64,000 nucleotides of DNA from Sphaerodactylus townsendi (Eukaryota). This document shows, in pieces, positions 26,033-64,000 of the stretch. Within the stretch, counting starts at the first letter, position 1. Every line of letters starts with the position of its first letter. A program made the translations under genes and the position numbers. The notes beneath the pieces are model-generated. The model was not told the origin of the DNA, searched no databases, and was given only the letters and a program-made list of their open reading frames with translations. The stretch spans positions 81,096,001 through 81,160,000 of the forward strand of contig NC_059429.1 of assembly GCF_021028975.2 (NCBI RefSeq). Reading direction: 5' to 3'.

Positions 26033-26395
26033 TAGCACTTCCAGCAGGCCTGCACATTAATACCGTATCCCTTTAGTAGAGTCTTAATGTGTGGAAATGG
26101 GTAGCTGAAGCTTTCATGACATGCAAGTAAATAATATCACCTGATAAAAAGCGCACCCGGACTCACCCGGCGCGCCATTGTGGCAGGGGAGGATTGAGCG
26201 GCTGCTCTCCTTCCCCTTATGCCTCAGAAGGGTGAGTGGTCGTAGCTTGACGGTTAGGAACCATCATGTGCTGACAAGGGGCGGGACGAGGACTATATAA
26301 GAAGCGAGTGCCTGGCTCGGCAAACCATTAAACAACATCCCATTAAACTTCTATAAAACATAAGACGTTTGTTCTCAAGATAGTTGGCAACACCA
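26033..26395 (+). mobile_element. Same MITE family, interrupted by the Ngaro-like 5' fragment
   Basis: cttaatgtgtggaaatgggtagctgaagctttc..atcacctg..catcccattaa..gttggcaac. Confidence 0.7.
26149..26328 (+). mobile_element. 5'-terminal (promoter) fragment of a related Ngaro-type element
   Basis: aaaaagcgcacccggactcacccggcgcgccattgtggcagggg aligns with 35470 aaaaagcagcaaccgaatcaacgggtgcagccattgctgctgggg. Has a GC box at 26278 and TATATAA at 26294, is flanked by taaa/taaa, and interrupts a MITE. Confidence 0.7.
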
Positions 26396-32991: not shown

Positions 32992-33144
32992 GGACCCCTT
33001 CCGTACATGCAGAATAATGCAGATTCAATCCACTTTCACAATTGTTTGAAAGTGGATCTTGCTATTCCGCACAGCAAAATCCATCTTCAAAGTGCATTGA
33101 AAGTGGATTGAAAGTGTATTATTCTGCATGTGTGGAAGGAAGCT
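32992..33144. mobile_element. ~150 bp palindromic Harbinger-like MITE
   Basis: ccttccgtacatgcagaataat / attattctgcatgtgtggaagg; homologous to 51603-51743. Confidence 0.8.
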
Positions 33145-34390: not shown

Positions 34391-35580
34391 AGTACCTTTA
34401 CCTTTAAATTAATAACAAATATAGATGAACATGGGAAGCAGATAAAAGATAGATTGGTGAATGACTGAGGAGGTGAGAATGAGGTAGGAAAAGAAGAGAG
34501 GATAAAGGGAAATAATATGGGGAAGGGGGTACACTGGAAAGTCCTTGCTCCCTACCATGCAACTGGGCCTGGCTCATAACTGGGTCATATTTTTCCAGGT
34601 AGTTGGTTCCGGAGCAGTTAAAGATAAGTTGGCTGTTGGGGGGCGGGGGGAGTGGGAAGGAGAGAAAGAACAGAGAACAGGCTATGGGGGTTTTCAGAAA
34701 AGAGAAAGGAAATAGTGGAGCAGGAAAAAAATGAGATATCCCCCACAAGTCCTTGCAAGTCCCTGCTTGTGTGTGTGTGGATGAATATGGAAAAGAAAGA
34801 AGAAAGGATGATAGTGAAAAATCCTTGGTTTGAAGTCAAAGGTAGGGCTCCTTTTTGGCGGATGTGATCGGGAACACAGCACAGCTGCCAAGAGATTAAG
34901 CTGTTACATGTTACTGTTGTTCAAGTACCAGCCCTCCAATCACACAAAGCCACCCCTAGACCACATTTCACTGCCTGTTGCATTCTGTTCCATCACCCCT
35001 TCCTTTATAAGTTGCCAAGCACAGTTGAAGGAGCTGACATTTCCAGCCTGGCTAACAGGAAGACAGGATGATTTTTCTTATGGTGTCTTTTTGACATGCT
35101 AACGTTGCTGAGGCACACACTCATGAATCCCAGGATTGGAAGGTGAGCAAATAACCTTTTCAAAAGAAGGCAGCGCTGCTCAGAGATACAGCTGTGGGTG
35201 CTAGACCTTGCAGGATTTTAATGAAGACACTCAGGAGATGGGTGAGGAGGGGAGCAAGTCATTGTGAAAAAGCTGAGGGTGTCATGGATTTCAGCTGTCT
35301 TTACATGCTGAAAAAACCCTGAGACAGGTGCATTTGTGTATATTGTGGGATTCTAAGAAGTAAGAGGGGAAATAGTTCCCTGTGACCATGAAAAATATTT
35401 TGCTTGGTGTGGGATAGAGTTGCTAAACACCTGAAGGAAAAACCTTGCCCCTAGAGGCTTATGTGTAGAAAAAAGCAGCAACCGAATCAACGGGTGCAGC
35501 CATTGCTGCTGGGGTGAGCTAAGGAGGCAAAATAAGTCTGCAAAGCATACCCGGACGGCATGCTGCAGGAGGGTGCAATG

Positions 35581-35624
35581 ATTGGCTCCGGGCCGGTAAA
35601 GGCGGGAGGAGCCTGAGTATAAAA
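35581..35624 (+). promoter_or_regulatory. Pol II promoter of the Ngaro-type element
   Basis: ATTGG (inverted CCAAT) 35581, GGCGGG 35601 and TATAAAA 35618, in canonical order and spacing upstream of ORF1. Confidence 0.7.
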
Positions 35625-35902
35625 GGGGCACCATACCCAGAGCTCATCCTTCTTGGCGGCGAGACTCAGAAAGGCGTGGTGCACGGAGACCGAGTCAAGC
35701 GTAAGGCCAAGAAGGAGCCTGACAGGGTATTTGCAGCTTGGTTTTCCCCCTCTTTTACTTAAGTCAACCCTCACTCTAGCTTTCTGCTTAAGCCCTCTCC
35801 TTCTTGCTCATTCCTTCACCCTAACACTTAACCTTTCCTTTCTTTCTCTGCACCCCCACTCTTCCTTCCAGCTGCCTACCCAGTTGAGGGGCTTTGGTTG
35901 CG

Positions 35903-37414
35903 ATGCCTCCAAAACGCTCCAAGAGCAAGGAGTCCCCTGGGAGGGAGCAATTCCCTTCGGGTAGGGCGAGGGCCCTCCTGAATAGGGTCCGAGCCTAGAC
36001 GGGCCCCGGGGCCGGCGGGGATGACCCGGTGGTTGGGTGTATCGGTGCAGCTGCCCGAGCAGCTGCAGCTGCAACCCTGGGCCTATCCCCGATAGGTCGG
36101 GGACGGGGAGTGGGCGCCGCGGGGCAACTCTCCTCAACCGGGAGGGGGCTCGGCTGCGGCGCGGCAGGGGAGGCCTCCACGGCGGCGGAGCCTCCTCTGG
36201 GCCCGGACGCGCACCCTCTTTCTTCGGGTGCAGTGTCGACGGCGGACCAGGCGCCTAGCTCTAGCCTGGTAAAGAGCCTGGCAGACACGCTGCTTCATCT
36301 TTCTCAGGCCCTTAGTGGGTCTTCTGGGAGCCTTGGGGCCCCTGTCGAGTCTGAGGACCTGGCACCATCAACGTCGGCGGCCGCCGGTGCGAGGGAAGCG
36401 GGCCCTTTGGAGCAGCCGGTTCAAGAATTCCAGCTCTCTCCTCCCGGAAGTGCTTTGACATCTGTCAATGCGTCAGTGGGCCCATCCGAGAGGGAAGGAC
36501 GGAGAAGGAAGCACTCGTCGCGGCATTCCCGTTCGTCTCACTGGTCTCCCAGCTCGTCTTCGTCCAGTGAGTCGATCAAGGACGACGAGATGCAGGCCAG
36601 CGGGGAGTATTGGTATCAAGGGGAGAAGGTACCCGCTTTGCCCTCTTGGTTAGCCAAGCGCAGGCGCCTTCGGGGACCAGAGGCACCATCTACTGGCTCA
36701 GCCTCTGATGACAATGGGAACCCTCCCGGGTCCCACCTGCCTAGGAAGCTGCGGGAGCGGGCCTTGGACGGGTATTACATGGACATATTTAAATGCTTGC
36801 GGCGGGAGGACGAGCAAGGTTTGTCCGGGGGCAAGGCCGACAGGAAAAAGAAAGACCCCCTGGCGGCAGAACGCAACTTTGATAACTGGTTGCAAGGTTT
36901 CAGCGAGTATTTAGCTTTAATAGCGGCCGCTTACCCTTTGTGGGCCTGACACCTGGTAACTCACATGTCGCACGTTTTGCAGGCCCGATCCTTAGCCGGG
37001 GAGGCCGCGGCCATAGCATACGATGAGGCAATTAGAAAGAACGCCTCGCATAAAAGCCGCTTCCGCTGGGACCTTATTCATGACCAAATGTGGATGGTAG
37101 TAGTCCAGCCGGCCATGAGAGGGGCTCACGACCCCGCTGTCAATGACAGACCCCCTAAGGGCCCTTCAGCAGGAAAAGGGACAGGAAAAGGGACAGGAAA
37201 AGGGATGTGCTGGGAGTTTAACAGGGGCTCTTGCCAACGAGCCAGGTGTAAGTATGAACACGTTTGCTCGAACTGCTCTGCAAATCACAGCAGGGTGAAT
37301 TGCCCAAAACCAGCAGGTCGCCCTTCTTTTCGGCAGGCCCGGTTCCCTGGCGCCGGGCACCCACAAAAGGACGCTGGCAGCCAGGGCGGCGGGGCCGCCT
37401 CCCAAAAGCACTGA
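35903..37414 (+). pseudogene. Gag-like ORF1 of the Ngaro-type element, interrupted by two in-frame stops
   Basis: ATG at 35903 (MPPKRSK..) is in frame with track ORFs 36029-36949 and 36965-37414, with stops TAG 35996-35998 and TGA 36947-36949. C-terminal CWEFNRGSCQRARCKYEH (CCCH finger) is followed by CSNCSANHSRVNC (CCHC-like knuckle). Confidence 0.85.
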
Positions 37415-37427
37415 CACCCCAGCCCCT

Positions 37428-39032
37428 TTGAGGACTTTGGCCCCCACCCCAGTGCGGCTCCGGGTGTTGCAGGACTGGCTGCAGCTCTACCCTGACAGAC
37501 CCGCGGCAGAATTTTGGGAAAAGGGTTTCTCCTCTGGTTTTAGAATCCCTTACCAGGGGCACAGGAGGGCCTATCATGCGAATAATTTGAAGTCCGTCCT
37601 AGAGCACCCTGATGTGGTGGCTGACAAGCTCCACAAGGAGGTGGGGGCGGGCAGGATTGCGGGCCCCTTCATCCAGCCACCATTAGCCAATCTGAGGATG
37701 TCTCCCATCGGGGTCGTTCCTAAGAAGGCCCCAGGGGAATTCCGCCTCATACAACATCTCTCCCACCCCCGGGGTGATTCCGTAAATGATTTTATTGACC
37801 CGGAGACATGCTCAGTAAAGTATGCCACCCTGGACGAGGCCGTCAGCCTGATTAGGCAGGCCGGCCCGGGTGCCTTACTGGCAAAATGCGACATTCAGTC
37901 CACCTTCCGGCTCCTGCCCATCTCCCCTCTGGACTTCGAGTTGCCGGGCATCCACTTTCAGGGGCGATGGTATGTAGACAAAGCAATGCCCATGGGTTGC
38001 TACATAGCCTGTGCTGCCTTCGAGGCGTTCAGCTCATTCTTGGAATGGGCTTTCACGCAGAGGGTTCCCTCGGGGTTAGTCACGCACTATCTGGACGATT
38101 TCCTCTTCGTGGGCAGGCAGGGCACTGAGGAGTGCGAGACTGCGCTGAGAGCTTTTCAAGCCTTGGCAGAGGAGTTGGGGGTCCCCCTGGCCCCCAACAA
38201 AACCGAGGGCCCAGTCGCTGTTCTCAATTATCTGGGCATACAGCTGGACACAGTCCGGGGCACCTCCTCCCTTCCTCAAGAAAAACTGCTCGCATTAGCC
38301 GATCTTATTCATTCAGTCCTGCCGTTAAGGAACTGCAGAGTGCGGCTGGTGCAGTCCTTACTGGGTCACCTTAATTTTGCCTGCAGGGTGGTGGCACCCG
38401 GCAGGGCCTTTTGCTCCCGGCTGGCCAGGTCATTGTCCGGGTGCAGGTCCCCCCAGCACCACGTCAGAGTCACCAGAGGCCTGAAAGAAGACTTGAGGGT
38501 TTGGCAAACCTTCCTCTCTGGTTTTAATGGCATCTCTATATGGCAATCATCGCTGGAACCCGGCCTGGAACTACAGGTGCATTCTGATGCCTCCGGGGTT
38601 CACGGCTTTGGTGTCTATTTCCAAGGGCAATGGTCTTGGGGCCTATGGCCCGCAGCCTGGCACACGATGGGAATCACCAGGGACCTCACCTTTCTGGAAT
38701 TATTCCCTATATTGGTGGCGTTTCACATCTGGTACGGTTACTGGCAGGATAAGCGGGTGCTCTTCTGGTGCGATAACCAGGCGGTGGTGCGGGTAGTGAA
38801 CCGGCAATCTTGTAAATCCGCACGGGTGATGCGGTTGGTGCGCAACCTCGTTCTCACTTGCTTAACTCACAATATTTCCTTTAAAGCCGCTTTCGTTCCA
38901 GGTTTGAATAACGAAATCGCTGACGCCTTATCTCGCCAGCAGGTGGACCGCTTCAGGCGCCTGGCCCCCGGGGCAGAGCTGTTCCCAGCAAATGTGCCGG
39001 CGGCCTTGTGGAACCTTGGCAGCGGACCGTAA
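37428..39032 (+). CDS. Reverse transcriptase / RNase H (DIRS/Ngaro-type pol)
   Basis: 534 aa open frame. RT motifs VVPKK..FRLIQHLS, KCDI, MPMG, HYLDDF, YLGI; RNase H motifs SDAS, FLEL, CDN, N.IADALSR. The track start is TTG, so the true start is unclear; the frame overlaps the end of ORF1. Confidence 0.95.
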   Translation: MRTLAPTPVRLRVLQDWLQLYPDRPAAEFWEKGFSSGFRIPYQGHRRAYHANNLKSVLEHPDVVADKLHKEVGAGRIAGPFIQPPLANLRMSPIGVVPKKAPGEFRLIQHLSHPRGDSVNDFIDPETCSVKYATLDEAVSLIRQAGPGALLAKCDIQSTFRLLPISPLDFELPGIHFQGRWYVDKAMPMGCYIACAAFEAFSSFLEWAFTQRVPSGLVTHYLDDFLFVGRQGTEECETALRAFQALAEELGVPLAPNKTEGPVAVLNYLGIQLDTVRGTSSLPQEKLLALADLIHSVLPLRNCRVRLVQSLLGHLNFACRVVAPGRAFCSRLARSLSGCRSPQHHVRVTRGLKEDLRVWQTFLSGFNGISIWQSSLEPGLELQVHSDASGVHGFGVYFQGQWSWGLWPAAWHTMGITRDLTFLELFPILVAFHIWYGYWQDKRVLFWCDNQAVVRVVNRQSCKSARVMRLVRNLVLTCLTHNISFKAAFVPGLNNEIADALSRQQVDRFRRLAPGAELFPANVPAALWNLGSGP

Positions 39033-39922
39033 TCACAGGTGTTTTGAATTCGTTAGCCCCGGCCCCGCGTAGACAATTCGACGAGGCCGTGCACTTCCAG
39101 AGCTATGCAGCAGCCGCGGGGCGCTCAGTCCACAGCGGGGTGGACACAGGACTGTTACTTGAGTACTTGGTGCACCTTCACGGTCAGGGGACACCCCCCC
39201 AGTCCATGGGGGTCCAGCTGGCAGGGATAGCGTTTTATTGCAGGCTTTCAGGTTTCCTGGATGTGACCAAGGCGTTTGTGGTTTGCCGGCTCTTGGCTGG
39301 TTGGCGTCGGGCAGGCCCCAGCCAGAGAGATTTAAGGCGCCCCATTACGAGGGAGGTGCTCCAGGCAGTCACAGGCACACTGCGGCAGGTTTGCGCTTCG
39401 CGCTACGAGCGTCTGCTCTTCGCTGCAGCATTCCACGTGGCACATCACGGGGCTTTCCGGCCGGGGGAGCTGGTTGCCCTCTCCAGGGAGCGGCTATCGG
39501 GCAAGGTCTTACAAATCCAGCACCTAGTACTGTCGGGGGATGGGGTTTATGCATGGCTGACCCATTCCAAGACAGATCAGGAGGGCCACGGCCCTTGGGT
39601 CACGATGCCGGCCCTACCGGGCGACGTGACTTGCCCCCTTGCCTCGTTAACTGCATGGCTCCCCCGTAGGCCTCGGCAAGGGGGGATGCTCCTGGTCCAC
39701 GAGGACGGTTCCCCCCTCACCAGGTTTCAGATGCTTGCCGTGCTTAGGGCATGCTTGGCGCGGTCGGGCTTGCCAGCCACTGAGTTTGGCCTTCACTCCT
39801 TCCGGATAGGGGCTGCCATGTCCGCAGCACAGGAAGGCAGGGCCCACAATGAGATACATACCCTAGGCAGGTGGCGCTCAGATGCTTTCCGGGCTTACAT
39901 ACGCCCTCACCTCTCTTGTTAA
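39008..39922 (+). CDS. Tyrosine recombinase (phage-integrase family)
   Basis: Catalytic set present: GAFRPGEL (R), SKTDQ (K), HSFRIGAA (HxxR), LGRWRSDAFRAY (W, Y). Confidence 0.95.
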   Translation: MEPWQRTVITGVLNSLAPAPRRQFDEAVHFQSYAAAAGRSVHSGVDTGLLLEYLVHLHGQGTPPQSMGVQLAGIAFYCRLSGFLDVTKAFVVCRLLAGWRRAGPSQRDLRRPITREVLQAVTGTLRQVCASRYERLLFAAAFHVAHHGAFRPGELVALSRERLSGKVLQIQHLVLSGDGVYAWLTHSKTDQEGHGPWVTMPALPGDVTCPLASLTAWLPRRPRQGGMLLVHEDGSPLTRFQMLAVLRACLARSGLPATEFGLHSFRIGAAMSAAQEGRAHNEIHTLGRWRSDAFRAYIRPHLSC

Positions 39923-39934
39923 TTCCTTTACAGT

Positions 39935-40540
39935 GACTCCAGGGACGCCCAGACTGTTGTTCGACAGGTGTGGGTCGTGGGGCACAGCATCGTCAACCGT
40001 GCTGGAGACTATGCCTGCTCGTCCGAGTGGGGCCGGCATCTCGGCTTGGAAGCATACCTGAGCATCACCTGGATGGGTCAGGGCAGCATGAGGTGGGCTG
40101 ACCTGGAATACACCATATTTAACTATGTTTTCCACCTAACTGCTCCAGACATTCTGGTCATCCACTTGGGCAAAAATGACCTTCCGGCAATGTCGGGCCT
40201 CGATCTGATGTGGGCTGTTGATGTCACTCTGAAGAGCCTGCAGAGGCATCTGCTGGACACGGTTCTTGTGTGGTCAGGGCTTTTGCAGAGGATTCTGTGG
40301 AGGGGTGCTGAGAAGCCCCACCGGGTGGACAGGGCCCGCCGCAAAGTGGACAAGGCGGCCGCCAAACTGGTGCTCTCTCTAGGGGGAGCGGTGGCAGATC
40401 ACTCGGAGATCTCCCACGACATCCACGATTTGTACAGATCGGACGGTGTCCATCTTACCGATTGGGGGATGGATCTGTGGCTACAGTCCATCCGGCACAC
40501 CCTTCTCCAAGTGGTGCGGAATTGGCAGGCTCAGGCTTGA
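39935..40540 (+). CDS. SGNH/GDSL-like hydrolase ORF
   Basis: Blocks VWVVGHS, LVIHLGKNDL (GxND) and SDGVHL (DxxH). A hydrolase ORF after the YR is a known trait of some animal Ngaro elements. No ATG upstream of the catalytic Ser. Confidence 0.9.
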   Translation, partial: DSRDAQTVVRQVWVVGHSIVNRAGDYACSSEWGRHLGLEAYLSITWMGQGSMRWADLEYTIFNYVFHLTAPDILVIHLGKNDLPAMSGLDLMWAVDVTLKSLQRHLLDTVLVWSGLLQRILWRGAEKPHRVDRARRKVDKAAAKLVLSLGGAVADHSEISHDIHDLYRSDGVHLTDWGMDLWLQSIRHTLLQVVRNWQAQA

Positions 40541-40675
40541 GAAGCTTGGGCGGGAGCTGCAAGAGGGGCAGCTTGTGGCGGGTTGGCAACGGGAGTCGCA
40601 ACATCTGGGGAGAAAACGAGCCATCCGGCAGGTTCTCCCAGGCTTGTGCCCTGCGGAAGGGCCGGGGTGTGTGGT

Positions 40676-40848
40676 GGGCCGGCTGGCAGGCCGGTAGGCT
40701 TGGCCGTTGCCTGACACCCCAGGGAGTGGGGTGGGTCGGGCCGGCTGGCAGGCCGGCAGGCTTAGCCAGTGCCCGACACCCCAGCAAGCTTGGGGAGGAT
40801 GGCGGGCTGGTAGGCGGTCATGGGCTTAGCCGGTGCCCGCCTCCTCAG
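40676..40848 (+). repeat. Three degenerate ~62 bp tandem repeats in the Ngaro 3' non-coding region
   Basis: gggccggctggcaggccgg(t/c)aggctt(g/a)gcc..tgcc(t/c)gacaccccag at 40676 and 40738, with a looser third copy at ~40801. Confidence 0.8.
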
Positions 40849-41001
40849 CAGGAGCAGGAAGGGTTGAAGCTGGAGTGTTACCTCCGGGGCTCCCCTTCCC
40901 GCTGGTGGCCCCAATGGAGATTGGGGATCGATTGATGTTGCGACCCGTTTGCTGCCCTAGCTTCTCTGTATATAGTTATTGTATATATTTGCATTTATAT
41001 T

Positions 41002-41007
41002 AATAAA
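41002..41007 (+). terminator. Polyadenylation signal of the Ngaro-type element
   Basis: AATAAA after an AT-rich tract, followed by GT-rich gtcgtagttgtgtcttt, ~85 bp from the element's right end. Confidence 0.65.
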
Positions 41008-42394
41008 TTGGGCTGCGGCCCAATCCATTTTTCCAAGCCTGTCGTAGTTGTGTCTTTATTTTGGCGGAGAAGGGTCTCACCATCTGCACGCAATGGGCAG
41101 CTGAAGCCTTTCATGACACAGAGGCAAGAGCAACACCATGACCCTCAGACATGCACAACAAAACACCCAGTTAAACATCTAGTAAAGAAGCAGGGCATGT
41201 TTTCTTCTGGTTGTTGACAACCATAGATAAGGGCATAGTAAGAGGGAAATAGGAAACATTTAGTGGAAACGTTTTCTGGATCCAATCTCATCTTTACTTG
41301 CTTATTAAACTTATTTTAGGACTTGAAATACATTTTAAAAATTTGATAGTGCATAACATTATACAATTTTGTTTATTATTGAAATTAAAAATATCCTGTA
41401 GTTTTGTTCAAACAAAATTACAAATGTGAAACGCACTAGAGAAAGTTTCAAACTGATGCATTCTCTGCTACCTGAGCTCAGATATCTTAGTTTACACCTA
41501 AAATGTTCTTCTTAAATAATTTCCCACCAAATAATAGAGGTTTTGTAATTGTTCTTCAGTAAGGCAGGCCAATAAGCTGCTAGTTTGGATGGAGCAGAGT
41601 GTCTATGTCACACCTCTTTAAGAAGTTAAAAGGTTGGTTATGGGTTGGTTGGTTATATCAAGAGAACAGCAGATTCAAGTTAGAAATGCTAAAGCAATTC
41701 CCAGTTTTATCTGGTTGACTTGAACCTTGGTGAGGAGAATCATATTTCTGCCCAAAAAGTAGCAGGGATAGTTTTGCTCCCACCCTTCTTAAAGAACTGG
41801 AGATGCCACACGCTGGGGTGGGGGAAAAGGAAGGGCTGCTGTGCTGTACTCTGTACAACCAACAAGAGAATGAGGTAGGGTTGGCGGTTCGGCCCCTCCC
41901 GAACGGCAAATCAGGCCGAGATCAGTCAGTTCGGAGGGGGTCGGAGGGCCGAGGAGCCGAGCCTGCCCCCTCCTCACTCTAAACTAACCGGCGCTGGGTT
42001 CTTCCCTCTCGGTGCCAGCTTAAGCCCGAGCCAGTTTCTGGGGAAAATAAAAATTTAACTCCTTCTGGCCCAGTCTTCTCCTCTGGCAAGTTTCTTGGGA
42101 CGAAATGAGCTTCCAAGTAAGCTTTGGGACGAAAGCAGCTTCGCAAGTAAAAAAACAAAACAACAACCCTACCGCAGTTTACCGCCCCCCCCACCCCACT
42201 CCCCGCAGTTTACAAGCACCCACCCCCACTCCAGCCTTCATTTCCCACCCAACTCCGCCGCCAAAACCCCAAGACTTCGAATCCCCATGCCGCCTTCTGG
42301 CAAGTGGCGTGGACGAAAGGGGCTTCAAACTACAAAAAATAAAACTCACAGAATGGTCCCCACAAAGCTTCCACCCAAAGAGACTCCCACTTAC

Positions 42395-43605
42395 CCACAG
42401 TGTCACTGGGCTTTCCCCACTTAGCCCGTAGTTTCTCCCGCCGGGCTACTTGAGGAGAGAGTAGCTGCTCCTCCTCCTCCTCATACACGCAGGGCTGCCA
42501 CAGCGCAGCCGCCTGCTGCTGCCGCTGGGCCTTTCCCCCCCACTTAGCCGCAAGCTCCCCGGGCGCTACTTGAGGAGAGTAGCGCCGGGTTCCTCCTTCC
42601 TCCTCATGGCAGGGCAGCCACAATGGAAGTCGCTCTCGCTGCCGCTGGGCCTTTCCCCGTTTACCGGTAGCGAAGCCCCGCCGGCTACTTGAGGAGAGTA
42701 GCTGGGTTCCTCCTCCTCCCAAGACGCAGGCTGCTGACAGCGCAGTCACCTTACCGCTGCCGCTGGGCTTCCTTTCCCCACTTACCGGGTGAAGCTCCCG
42801 TGCTATTTGGAGGAGAGTAGCTGGGTTCCTCCTCCCTCACCTGCAGGGACGGCCAGCCAGCCGCGAAGTCAGCTTCCACCGCTGCCGCTGGGCCTTTCCA
42901 CTTCACCGTGAACTCTGCTACTTCTTGAGGAGAGTAGCGCAATTCCTCCTCCCTCCTTCGACGGCAGGGCGGCTACAGCCGCCAGTGCCGCCTTGCCGCT
43001 GTCGCTGGGCCTTTCTCTACTTAATCGCGAAGCCCCTCGCCGCTACTTGAGGAGAGTAGCCGTGGGTTCCTCCTCCTCATCGCGTAGGGCGTGCTACCAA
43101 AGAAAGTCAGCCCACCGGCTGCCGCTGGGCCTTCCCTCACTTTAACATCAGAAGCCCTCTCTGCGGCTACCTTGAGAAGAGTAGCTGGTCTCCTCCTTCC
43201 GACGCAGGGCGCTACAAAGAGCCAGCCCTACCGCTGCCGCTGGGTTTTCCCTTTACTCATCTTTACCGTAACCCCGCGGCTACTTTGGAGGGAGAGTAGC
43301 GCCGTTCTCCCTCTCCTCTATCGGGTAGGGCGCTACAAAGCAGTCAGCTTCCGCCACCGCGTCGCTGGGCCTTTCCCCACTTGTCAGTAAGCTCCCGCTA
43401 CTTGAGGAGAGTAGCTGGTTCCTCCTCCATCCCTAATGCAGGGCGTGCCACAGTACTGGAAGCCGCGTCAGCTGTCAAGGCCTTTCCCCATCTTTATCGT
43501 AGTGCTCCCGCCGCCACTTGAGGAGAGTAAAGCGGGCAATTCCTCCTCCTCCTCAATGCACGGTAGCGGCCACAGCGCAGTCGCCTTCCACCGCCGTCGC
43601 TTTCG
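42395..43605. repeat. ~120 bp GC-rich tandem array (~10 units) inside the hAT element
   Basis: Recurring gccgctgggcctttcccc..gctacttgaggagagtagc..ttcctcctcc..gcagggc at ~119-120 bp period. Confidence 0.9.
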
Positions 43606-43994
43606 TCGCCCCTCAGCTACAGCGGGCATCTCAGGCTTTTCTGAACGGCTTTGACGACTTCGCGACAGAGCTGGTCAGTGGACGCTTCGACGCTAAGGGC
43701 TGATGCCGCTGGAGAGCAGCGCCAGCGGCATAGGGGATGGAAGGGAGTGGGGAAAAGCTCCATTGTCCACAGGCTTCTCCACTCCAGTGAAGCGCAGGAC
43801 AGCACAGTAAGGCTGGAAGAAAAAAAGTGCTGGGGAAAAAAAGAAACAAAAGCAGAGAATCCACATCCCCAATGTTAGAAATGTGGCAAAACAACACTTT
43901 AACTGAAAAAAATCAACTACTTTTAACTGAACAACTAACTAAAAAACTTTAATAAATTTATGTGGTGAATTCCACCTGCCTGGGAGAGTTTCTT

Positions 43995-44460
43995 TACCAC
44001 AGTGCCCGCGAAAACATGGTTAAAAGCATGGATCCTCAAGGATCCGCGATGGTTTTTTCACTTGGTCACCCAAGCAAAATCACCACCACCAACATGGCAC
44101 AAGTCCTTAGACATTACGTCTGAACAAAGTAGTCACACATCCCATGCTTCATGGGCTCCAACAGTGCCCCAAAACATGGTTAAAAGCTATGGATCCTCAA
44201 GCGATCCACATGGTTTTTTTCTACCTATCACCCAAAATCACCACCACATCATGGCACAAGTCCTTAGGCACATGTTCGCACAAAGCAGTCACACATCCCA
44301 CGCTTCATGGCCCAACAGTGCCCCAAAAACATGATCAAAAAAAGAATGGATCCTCACCGACTTACCGATTTTTTCCTTGGTCACCCCAAAAATCAATACT
44401 GTAAACATCACACAGTAGCACAAAAAATCTGTTTAAAAAAGCAAGGTTCCTCAAGGATCC
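43995..44460. repeat. ~150 bp tandem array (~3 units) inside the hAT element
   Basis: acagtgccc..aaaacatggttaaaagc..ggatcctcaag..catggcacaagtccttag repeated. Confidence 0.8.
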
Positions 44461-60859: not shown

Positions 60860-62400
60860 GTCGGCGTCGGCGAGCGAGCAAGAGAGAGCGCGGGGAGCCG
60901 AACAAGCGGGCCGGACGGGCGTCGCAGGCGCCAGCCCAGCCGGCTGGCAGCGGAGTGGGGTGAGCCGAAACAGCCGGCAGGCCAATCGTCGGGCAAGCAG
61001 TCAGGCGGCCGGGTGGCAGGCAAGGAGTGGGCCGGCAAGGCAAGCAGGCGTCGGCCGGCGCGAGTCGACGGCGCGCGCAGGCAAGTGGGCCGGGCAAGCA
61101 GCCGGGGCAAGGGCAAGCAGGCAAGCAGGCTGGCGCGAGCCGCGCGAGTACGGGCAAGCAGGCCGGCCGGGCGCGAGCGGGCGCGAGCCAAAGGCAAGCA
61201 GGTGTCGGCCGGCAAGTGAGCCAGCGCTGCCGGCCGGCAAGTGAGGGGCCAGCCGAGGCTGGCAACTGAGCCGGGCGCCGCGCTAAGGCGCCCCGGGCGC
61301 GGAGTGGCCGGGCGCGAGGGCTGCCTGGTGAGGGCCGGCAACTGAGCCGGCCGGCGCAGGCAAGTGGGCCGGCAAGCGAGCCGGGCAAGGCAAGCAGGTG
61401 CCGGCCGGCAAGCGAGCCGGGCGAGCGGGCGCCGCGCTGCCGGCCGGGCGCGAGCAGGCCAAGAGCCGGGGCGCGCAGGTGTCGGCTGCGCGCGAGCCGG
61501 GGCAAGGCGGCCGGGCAAGTGAGGGGCGAGCGTTTGAGGGGCCGGGCACCGGCCGGGCGCGCAGGCCGGGCCGGGCAAGGAGCCGGGAAGGCAAGCAGGT
61601 GGCTGGCTGGCAAGGAAGGCAGGAACGGGTGGAAGAGGTGAGGTGGAAGGCATGGAAGGAAAAAAAAAAAAAAAAAAGGAAATGGAAGGTGAAAATAAGG
61701 AAGGTGTGGTGGAAGGTGAAGGGTGGAAGGTGGAAATGGAAAAGGGAGGTGGAGTGGTGGAAGGGTGGTAGGTATGGTGGTGGAAAGGTGTGGTATGGTG
61801 AAAGGGGTGGCAGTGGTGGTGGTGGGGGAAGGCATCGAATCCATATGAGTCATATAGTCGATCCATGATAATACGATCGGTGTCGATAAGCCGGATACGA
61901 TACAACTGAGTCGGTACGCTATGTCGGTCGGCATATGTCGGCATGAGTCGGTCGGCGTATGTTTACGCGCTATGGTGTCGACAAGTGAGCTGGCATACGC
62001 TATGTCGGCCATGAGCGCTATGCCGATCGGGCGTCGAAATGCGCTATATGACGGTACAAGTGAGTCAAGGTAAGTCGGTCAAGCAAGTGAGGCAGCTATG
62101 TCGGCAAGCGAGTCGGCGCGCAGGTAAGCCGGCAAGCGAGCCGGCGCTTTGGTATGCGCTATGTCGCCATAAAGTGAGCCGGGCGCGCTATGCGTCGTAC
62201 GGGCGCTGAGCCGTACGGGCAAAGGCAAGCAGGTGAGCCGGACGGGCAAGTGAGCCGGGGCAAGCGCGCGGTAAGCTGGCAAGTGAGCGGGGCAAGGCGC
62301 TAAGGTGTCGGTATATGGACGGTATATGCGCTAAGGTAAGGGTGGGCAAGGAGTTACGGCAAGCGCGCTATGTTGGTGGTCGGCAAGCGAGGGCGAAAGC
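60860..62400. repeat. GC-rich low-complexity array (ggcaag / gccgg / gcgctatgtcgg) with a purine-rich block at 61620-61830
   Basis: Short motifs repeated irregularly. Confidence 0.8.
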
Positions 62401-62479
62401 GTTTAGGATGGGGGCTATGGGGCGCGTCGGTTAGTAAAGGGCAAGTGGATGGCGAAGCCGAAAGCAACAATTTTGAGTA

Positions 62480-63250
62480 AAAGAATTGACTTCCAGCCGG
62501 TTGCTGGCGAGATACCGTTGCCTGCACGGCGGTAAAGATGGGTCTGGCGGTTCGGCCCATTAATAATCGAGAGCACCGCACAAGCAGCGTAATGGCAGGA
62601 CGAAGATCGCCACACCGGGCCCGTCGCTGGGGATACCGCCCTGACTTTGGTATGGGGTAAAGATGGGCTGTAGTGGATCGGCCTGGCTGACCGCCGATAC
62701 CAGTTACGGGCGGCAGGAGGTAAAAGTTTAGCACCCGCCGGTCGGCGATGCGCCTGCTCTTGGTGGTGAAGATGGGGGACGGTGTGGTCGAGTTCCGGTC
62801 GGCCGCCGAGAGCACCACCTACAACTGGTGATGGGCAGGAGGTAAAGCTCACGGCAACGCAAGCCTGGCCGCCTTATGCTTCCGCTTCTGCAGGGCGTAT
62901 GAAGATGGGGATCGCACTGCCTGGTCGGGCCGCCGACAGCACCCACCCGCAAGCAGTGGGCTGGCAGGAGGTAAAGCTCACGCATCTGGCCGGGCCGCTG
63001 GTGGATGTACTTCGATTCTGCAGGCTGGCTAAGATGGCGCAAGCGGTGGATCGGAAGCCCTGTATCGCTTCCCGCAGTGGCTGGCGAAGATTGTCCGGCG
63101 TTCGCCCCTGGCCGGTTAAAGCCACCGGCAAGCAGCGGGCGTGGGTGGTAAAGTCACGCTGTTTCGGTCGGGCCGCTGATGGATAACGCCTGCTCGCAGG
63201 CTAAGATGGCCCATGGTTCGCCATGGAGCCGCAGAACAGTGGCGAAGAGC
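62480..63250. repeat. Degenerate ~125 bp tandem array
   Basis: ggcaggaggtaaag..aagatgggg..ggtcgggccgccga recurs (62711, 62834, 62963). Confidence 0.65.
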
Positions 63251-63359
63251 CGCAGCGTCAAGCGAGCCACGGGTTCCTACTCCCCGTTTTAGTAGGGATG
63301 CAGGAACACCACGAAATACCCAGCCTGTTCTCCTGGCTATTAAAGTAAGTAACTCCTTT

Positions 63360-63810
63360 GTTAAAACGTTCTACCCTTGTGGCATGGGATGGGGAGGGCA
63401 GAATTTGGCCAGTGTTTATTTCTGTGGCAAATCTTCTATCCTGGTGGCATGGGGATGGGAGAGGCAGAATTTGGCCTGCGTTTGCTTTCTGTGGGCAAAT
63501 CTTTCTACCCTGGGTGGTATTCGGGATGGGAGTGGCGAATTTGGCCAGTGCTTGGTTTCTGTGGGCAAATCTTTCTACCCTGGCGGCATGGGAATGGAGA
63601 GTGCAGAATGGCCAGTTTGGTTTCTGTGGGCAATCTACCCTGGTGGCATGGGAATGGAGAGAATTTGGCCAGTGCTTGGTTTCTGTGGCAAATCTTCTAC
63701 CCTGGTGGCATGGGGATGGGGAGAGGAGTTTTGCTCGCGTTTGGCCCGGCTTTGCAAAACTGTCTACCCAGGTGGCATTGGGGTGGAGTGGGGAGATTTT
63801 GCCCAGTGCC
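63360..63810. repeat. ~60-65 bp minisatellite, ~7 units
   Basis: aaatcttctaccctggtggcatggggatggg..gaatttggccagtgcttggtttctgtgggc. One further copy lies near the other end of the element at ~60595-60660. Confidence 0.9.
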
Positions 63811-63976
63811 CCTGCTGCAGACCCTGCTCTGGAAATCCCTTCCCCAGAACGCAGACCATGCCCCGCCATGTTGTAAAGTTCAATCTCTGCTCCGGCTTAC
63901 ACTAATGCCGACTGTTTGGAATCCCACCACCATCGGGAACCTGTTACAAATTTTGAATCCCACCACTGAGAAAAGG

Positions 63977-64000
63977 CAGAGGTGGATGCAGCTGTTCGCA
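63977..64000. mobile_element. Start of a second, tandem copy of the same hAT-like element
   Basis: cagaggtggatgcagctgttcgca matches 60356 cagaggtgggatgcagccggttcgca and begins directly after the TSD. Confidence 0.8.

Follow-up and report, generated by a model that had tools for sequence, protein, structure and literature searches.

A predicted folded domain at a repeat boundary in the 3′ tail of hydrolase-bearing Ngaro retrotransposons, a candidate cis-acting replication structure

The 3′ non-coding tail of a hydrolase-bearing Ngaro retrotransposon in Sphaerodactylus townsendi is predicted to fold into a domain closed by a long-range stem, and this architecture is conserved across about half of the hydrolase-bearing relatives examined; the feature is real. 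A short G-rich motif lies at the foot of the stem and likely marks a site where strand copying starts, since distant relatives keep both stem and motif and begin their end repeat in the motif. Judged from its sequence, the fold is best read as a cis-acting replication structure of retroelements that is tied to a repeat boundary. The folded element is very probably functional, and it is rather likely that a replication event of one kind or another (plus-strand initiation, or minus-strand initiation or circle closure) takes place at the motif. Our preferred and more specific proposal, to which we assign a probability of roughly 40%, is that predicted fold and motif together act in cis to fix the start of plus-strand DNA, and hence the start of the terminal repeat B.

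The window, that is, the whole stretch of DNA analysed (64,000 nucleotides, positions 81,096,001 to 81,160,000 of NC_059429.1), contains a copy of this element with its ORFs on the plus strand, as identified by ORF, Pfam and homologue searches:

35500..41097, plus strand: copy of a Ngaro-type tyrosine-recombinase retrotransposon, layout A-ORFs-B (left end tentative, right end supported)
35618..35624, plus strand: TATA-like box of a putative promoter in A (sequence; function inferred)
35999..37414, plus strand: gag-like frame, two abutting ORFs in the same frame with an in-frame stop at 36947-36949
37299..39032, plus strand: reverse transcriptase (RT)/RNase H ORF, 577 aa (Pfam RVT_1, E 7.8e-10)
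38924..39922, plus strand: tyrosine recombinase (YR) ORF, 332 aa (88 homologues, best 44% identity)
39923..40540, plus strand: SGNH/GDSL hydrolase ORF (Pfam Lipase_GDSL_2, E 0.00089, below the gathering cutoff)
41002..41062, plus strand: putative poly(A) region with AATAAA at 41002-41007, a CTGCGGCC motif at 41013-41020 and a GT-rich tract at 41040-41062 (function inferred)

Gag, RT/RH, YR and an SGNH hydrolase after the YR are the gene set of hydrolase-bearing Ngaro elements, which the window element shares with the Ngaro-like superfamily of the order DIRS (the Xenopus DIRS-53_XT/DIRS-54_XT type), as far as the accessible part of PMC9210276 describes them. Pfam returned no match for the gag-like frame; its second half matches the frame upstream of the RT in many relatives, and no match to the gag of the window element was found in the N-terminal parts of 150 hydrolase homologues. 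The RNase H part of the 37299..39032 ORF was recognised by eye, Pfam having no match there. For the recombinase ORF, which has an invariant HSF.IG stretch, the top named matches are from lizards and frogs, and many of the homologues carry PF00589. The hydrolase ORF has 1380 relatives at E ≤ 0.001. Its first Met is residue 51 and its GHS motif residue 20; since no ATG precedes GHS and a branch-point/pyrimidine/AG-like stretch runs across 39915-39933 (with a splice-acceptor-like AG at 39932-39933), the hydrolase may be spliced into expression. A methyltransferase domain was not found among the five ORFs scanned with Pfam, and the lack of one, like the hydrolase after the YR, is a Ngaro-like feature according to PMC9210276. 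The class of CTGCGGCC motifs occurs in 4 of 14 hydrolase-type tails and in 5 of 88 others, tails below 250 nt having been dropped from this count.

The right end of the element is placed at about 41096-41098 from the starts of single-copy flank contigs (41069 in run X1, 41068 in run X5), if contigs break at 31-letter words, as we infer; contig depth is back to single-copy by 41140. The left end shows a 7-bp terminal inverted repeat and a 4-5 bp direct repeat and nothing more, its match score of 24 being equalled or exceeded by 10 other, partly overlapping, sequence windows, and the terminus at 35500 is accordingly tentative. Split direct repeats, which are shown by relatives in the superfamily and are present in the hydrolase-type relatives L152 and L153, are absent from the window copy: neither a second A (A2) nor a second B (B2) was found in 35500..41097, and the copy is probably truncated or recombined. 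Inside the element no significant complement of either end (ICR) was found, and a DIRS-like reading (ITR plus ICR) was rejected, the arms of the stem pairing with each other and not with the termini.

The predicted fold of the tail comprises an outer stem (P1), a local hairpin (P2), the junction motif and a long-range stem (P3) with its loop:

40539..40551, plus strand: 5′ strand of P1, pairing with 40954-40966 (13 nt, 92% complementary)
40554..40574, plus strand: P2, 7 bp (40554-40560/40568-40574) with a purine-rich 7-nt loop, pair probability 0.92-0.96
40575..40581, plus strand: conserved GTGGCGG junction motif; terminal repeat B probably has its 5′ limit at 40576/40577
40580..40605, plus strand: 5′ arm of P3, core 40595-40605; one-base deletion at 40600 in all four runs of family contigs
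40664..40851, plus strand: three ~62-nt GC-rich repeats, each foldable as a long bulged hairpin
40857-40863/40893-40899 and 40909-40915/40920-40926, plus strand: two further loop hairpins, pair probability 1.00 and 0.99 (predicted only)
40934..40957, plus strand: 3′ arm of P3, core 40934-40944; one-base deletion at 40938 in all four runs
40954..40966, plus strand: 3′ strand of P1, of which 40954-40957 is common to the foot of P3

A preliminary description of this DNA had proposed a stem between 40586-40605 and 40934-40952 with a perfect 11-bp core, and both held: the quoted letters stand at these positions, and the core (40595-40605/40934-40944) has predicted pair probabilities of 0.94-0.99 for 10 of its 11 pairs and 0.5 for the outermost. 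With bulges the core is predicted to extend to ~23 bp (P3, 40580-40605/40934-40957). An outer helix that the same description drew between gggcagc (40566-40572) and gctgccc (40951-40957) is wrong, with a pair probability of ~0 and a cost of 6.7 kcal/mol if forced; the gggcagc bases fall instead in P2. The outer stem P1 had escaped that reading; its first seven pairs have probability 1.0, the eighth 0.85 and the inner four ~0.36.

The three ~62 bp GC-rich repeats described in a ~330 nt loop are likewise present. Tandem Repeats Finder (TRF) reports a period of 62 with 2.8 copies and 79% matches at 40677-40850, within the 328 nt between the arms. The units are 52/63, 48/64 and 43/65 identical in pairwise comparison and fold singly at -34, -43 and -34 kcal/mol; when the whole domain is folded, units 1 and 2 may alternatively pair with one another. 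Beyond the domain, a pairing of 40523-40539 with 41034-41044 is predicted (probability 0.75-0.80), its register depending on the strand, and such a pairing of the end of the hydrolase ORF with the region past AATAAA could affect poly(A) use. Rfam 15 gave a single chance-level match (E 1.7) in 35300-44000 and nothing at the gathering score in L153, L006, L024 and L154. The folded tail domain is a conserved one that is absent from Rfam.

Taken alone, the stem of the window is only modestly unusual. A perfect inverted repeat of 11 bp with a loop of 250-480 nt turns up in 2 of 100 dinucleotide-shuffled versions of the 700-nt tail, and on a generic ungapped, G-U-tolerant helix-energy score the tail does no better than its own shuffles (z +0.9). 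Both figures speak for chance complementarity in a GC-rich, G-skewed tail, an explanation that is nevertheless extremely unlikely given the relatives described below, in which stem and motif occur together in 6 of 13 real tails versus 0 of 1300 shuffles, compensatory pairs separate L134 from L136, and matching deletions are found in the family of the window copy.

Relatives were taken from the best 80 of 567 metagenome loci, 51 genome-contig loci and further hydrolase loci from G002; these loci are probably eukaryotic DNA in those assemblies. Their hydrolases are 24-33% identical to that of the window. A stem was counted where a perfect inverted repeat of at least 11 bp with a loop of 250-480 nt lay after the last ORF, thresholds that were set after examples had been seen; tails below 560 nt or with N, the duplicates (L132=L083, L133=L082, L151=L081) and the weak matches L139-L150 were left out. 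Such a stem is found in 7 of 13 hydrolase-type tails (window included) versus 4 of 69 other Ngaro-like tails, in sets that include the best 80 of the 567 metagenome loci. With the window excluded the counts are 6/12 and 4/69 (Fisher p 0.0004, or 0.002 with L134 and L136 merged). Among the controls, the stem appears in 36 of 1300 shuffles, in coding sequence at 0/13 and 5/65, and in none of four elements with an upstream hydrolase. Stem plus a TGGC[GA]G motif no more than 30 nt upstream occurs in 6/13 hydrolase-type tails, 0/69 others and 0/1300 shuffles. The other six of the 13 hydrolase-type tails are without a stem of at least 11 bp.

Conservation of the stem in relatives and compensatory changes had been named in the preliminary description as points whose absence would refute its proposal. 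The stem does recur, with unrelated letters: hydrolases of stem-positive elements are only 27-49% identical in pairs, and their tails give no blastn match to one another except between L134 and L136 and for one short match of L057 with L136. The window tail itself has no blastn likeness to the metagenome loci (best 80 of 567). L134, L136 and L138 were fetched by hydrolase search after motif and stem had been noted, and all three have both. In five G002 loci the order stem, G-tract, hairpin, GTGGC(G/A)G, stem can be followed by eye; in the three whose tails are complete, a perfect stem of 13-17 bp comes right after the motif, with loops of 399-406 nt. The arms of L134 and L136 are near-identical islands amid poorly alignable DNA, and compensatory pairs distinguish the two loci, two of them in P3 and a third in P2; 64 of 500 shuffles match this covariation, so it is not significant alone, and slid controls are 28-46% paired.

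The same comparisons bear on a reading at the DNA level, by which GGCGG motifs and inverted arms would be double-stranded signals bound by the recombinase or by host factors. Plus and minus strands do fold about equally well (plus better in 5 of 7), and the motif recurs near the promoter and near the right end, as the preliminary description had remarked of TTGGCGG at 35653 and 41061. The positions are correct; the two copies are not notable by count, however, since the window holds 6 copies against 4.9 expected and 35 of 100 shuffles of the window reach 6. Moreover, the letters of the arms differ wholly between elements while pairing is kept, which is not what a sequence-specific site predicts, and the recombination junction sits at the other end of B. 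We regard this reading as very unlikely.

Broader definitions of the fold were less telling. The generic best ungapped helix reaches p ≤ 0.05 in 13 of 54 tails and in 11 of 54 coding controls (paired p 0.78), in sets from which, as for the junction caller, tails below 400 nt or with N had been dropped. A caller for three-way junctions, modelled on the window, L006, L024 and L012, accepted 4/8 hydrolase tails, 0/46 others, 5/54 coding controls and 10/272 shuffles. As a general definition the three-way junction was dropped, for hydrolase loci obtained later gave 0/1 and 0/3 new full tails; in the tails that failed, the outer stem is either closed locally or missing from the prediction. No relatives of the element were found in viral contigs, and hydrolase searches of 17 further contig sets added none that has a long tail.

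Within the family of the window copy, contigs of four runs (X1, X4, X5, X6; four organisms, three studies) were compared over 40440-41180. Two one-base deletions, at 40600 and at 40938, are both present in all four runs, unphased. The 5′ arm loses an A from an AA and the 3′ arm a T from a TT, and together the two losses keep the stem perfect. Their shares at the two positions are 21%/14% in X1, 35%/68% in X4, 19%/38% in X5 and 4%/2% in X6; these figures, like those for the loose ends below, rest on the rows listed (34 further indel rows and 421 further loose ends exist). No substitution within 40586-40605 or 40934-40952 is present among the 40 substitution rows listed (75 further rows exist). 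These matching deletions and the two P3 pairs of L134/L136 are changes of the kind looked for. T40574C is near fixed in all four runs and turns a G-U pair of P2 into G-C. More generally, the bases that predominate in the family at 40574, 40695, 40707 and 40768 restore pairs, or make them stronger, in P2 and in one of the folds open to the repeat units; for 40574 and 40768 this says little on selection, because CpG decay in the window copy would give the same.

The contigs also bear on where B starts. Among the loose ends listed, 12 contigs in X1 break before 40577 and 12 in X4 before 40576, and one X6 contig has 318 other letters ahead of 40577. Such ends would fit a B2 in other copies of the family, and the B of the window family probably starts at 40576/7; as the window copy is without B2, its boundary rests on these loose ends, which could stem from another subfamily. 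Summed contig depth also rises at 40515, ~20- to 25-fold in three runs and ~3-fold in X6, a step upstream of the proposed B start. It hints at many solo or non-autonomous ORF-less copies that keep the domain including P1 and P2. Isolated AB repeats are known in Cafeteria, according to the accessible part of PMC8547959.

The layout of complete relatives is A1-ORFs-B1-A2-X-B2, and identity between their repeat copies is sharply bounded at the start of B and at the end of A. The accessible part of PMC9210276 gives the repeats as A1-B1A2B2 and mentions no folded tail, B-start motif or spacer X. In L152 and L153 the identity between the B copies sets in within the motif, and in L083 just past it; in L057, B starts at TGGC within the loop, downstream of the 5′ arm. 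In 28 loci chosen from self-comparison of the fetched loci, GG stands within the first 4 nt of B in 21, for an expected share of ~0.2 (17 of 24 with four near-duplicates dropped, p 1e-7). The bases past GG vary freely among elements. That the tail holds a cis-acting structure for the RT had been suggested in the preliminary description, and the fact that B starts in the stem-foot motif supports this indirectly; the outer helix and the TTGGCGG copies that accompanied the suggestion do not.

In 23 of 28 loci the sequences on either side of the boundary pair more strongly at B1 than at B2 (p 1.5e-5, a post hoc test); compared with random GG sites the effect is weak (p 0.027), and only in 5 of 28 does the real locus outdo its shuffles. 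A hairpin immediately ahead of the B start, sought with a narrow test, was present at 3/28 B1 and 2/28 B2 starts and at 23/697 controls, a negative outcome. A simple two-LTR circle with A2 next to B2 was rejected on two grounds: in 28/28 loci the 200 nt that precede B2 are not found in A1, and in all five loci with both A copies a unique spacer X lies between A2 and B2. X is 135-950 nt long in these five and exceeds 1 kb in L152 and L153. It may correspond to the SIRE exclusive internal region, of ~30 bp in the accessible part of PMC6681497. In all seven loci with a placeable A2 end, X starts with CCC and 3-4 C-runs (background 1%), which are quadruplex-like G-runs on the minus strand:

L056:6802, L064:6612, L067:6561, L079:6656 and L128:4153: X with its C-runs
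L152 and L153: C-runs just after A2

Fold-back pairing of these C-runs with the G motif at the B start was rejected, no letter-for-letter covariation being visible by eye. At the end of B1 in L091, L096, L106, L127 and L128, the B|A junction reads by eye as TTAA, a short spacer and a second TTAA-like arm, a palindromic recombinase-site pattern.

In LTR elements, the 5′ end of plus-strand strong-stop DNA is set by an RNase H cut. The sharp identity limits suggest that the segment from B start to A end is recopied in each cycle of Ngaro elements; it would be copied twice per cycle, like strong-stop DNA. With P1 and P2 on the upstream side of the boundary, B1 is the only place where the junction can form, and it is this, with the strong-stop parallel, that ranks plus-strand priming first. 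In the proposed mechanism, RT/RNase H would cut at the junction and leave a primer end at GG, P3 (wholly inside B) would with the hairpin array hold the site in shape and offer a binding platform for Gag or RT, and the C-runs past A2 would delimit the copied segment at its far side. The data are also compatible with events at this position other than plus-strand priming.

One such event is minus-strand initiation, in which RT at the B1 junction would make or capture a very short primer on GG and move it to the identical letters at the start of B2; another is circle closure, with the cDNA ends joined at the motif. Both account for the same B-boundary data, and initiation at X|B2 would agree with the need to rebuild B2 from its very first base. 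For DIRS-1 no primer is known, and a 3′ hairpin has been proposed, in the accessible part of PMC7192593. The free variation past GG nevertheless leaves no sign of a fixed primer-binding site, the C-runs that open X do not, by eye, track the B-start motif letter for letter, and the sharp A2|X boundary is left unexplained by these variants by themselves. We hold them to be unlikely.

Quite unlikely as the sole function is an element for RNA packaging, export, stability or poly(A) control, near which B would start only because both copies need the motif and all that follows it. Retroviral psi packaging signals are arrays of bulged hairpins bound by Gag, and the loops of L006 and L024, like that of the window, are filled with runs of bulged hairpins, as for binding of a protein in multiple copies. 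The 3′ arm lies ~50 nt ahead of AATAAA in the window, and the depth jump at 40515 suggests ORF-less copies that keep the domain, summed depth being a hint only. Such a role fails, however, to explain why B starts near GG in 21/28 elements, most of them without a long stem, or why C-runs are conserved at the A end, and it is compatible with the plus-strand explanation, so that both can hold.

Plus-strand priming at the motif invites comparison with known systems. In hepadnaviral epsilon, RT recognises a stem with a bulge or loop and an upper hairpin, and a short primer is made and then moved. The likeness to epsilon and to psi is one of architecture. As with the LTR polypurine tract, a primer end would fix the 5′ limit of a terminal repeat that is later duplicated; Ngaro differs in having no fixed purine tract, the conserved items being the fold and the GG motif, and in integrating by a tyrosine recombinase at the B|A junction. 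Hairpins that contain the polypurine tract, and pairing of repeat with repeat-adjacent sequence, are described for LTR retroelements in the accessible part of PMC3601003. The DIRS-1 hairpin (PMC7192593) and Tf1/chromovirus self-priming (PMC3601003), as presented in the accessible parts of these sources, likewise have the element's own RNA structure supply or position the primer. The former is local, 14 nt at the 3′ end of the RNA, and the latter a 5′ structure, whereas the tail considered here is a 300-400 nt domain with a long-range stem closing it at the start of B.

Doubtful as a whole scheme, if conceivable, is an LTR-like Ngaro replication run by structure instead of tRNA and polypurine tract. 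The junction with the GG motif would set the plus-strand start and thereby the B boundary, quadruplex-like G-runs of the minus strand at the start of X would stop the strand at the A end, and the B-A unit would be a cryptic LTR that the recombinase splits on integration. Hydrolase-bearing elements would have fused the junction to a folded domain of 300-400 nt for RNP recognition. The literature searched in full text, a scope outside which lie the original Ngaro papers and the Repbase reports, contains no description of the fold, the B-start motif or the C-runs at the A end, and no mechanism for priming in split-direct-repeat elements was found there. Priming of tyrosine-recombinase retrotransposons is stated to be unknown in the accessible part of PMC7192593, and the motif, its flanking stems and the A-end C-runs provide base-level addresses for it. 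In addition, the B-start motif gives a rule for locating repeat boundaries in Ngaro annotation.

Several minor observations concern the surroundings of the element. Positions 26075-26391 of the window resemble 41068-41221 and 35452-35514 and have a TATA-like stretch (scores 27-46, some near chance), possibly as an old related remnant or a preferred target. At 42401-43600, some ten diverged units of ~119 nt (60-80% identity) form a GC-rich array that has no relation to the Ngaro tail; 33000-33136 is a 64-nt inverted repeat, 78% complementary, with 9 nt between the arms; and 61001-64000 is a GC-rich block (55-67%) with strong GC skew. Among the relatives, L025, L037, L061 and L062 have a hydrolase-like frame upstream of the recombinase, in L025 and L037 upstream of gag, and in L025, L026 and L032 strong long-range helices are predicted in the 600 nt before the recombinase stop (z -5 to -6 versus shuffles).
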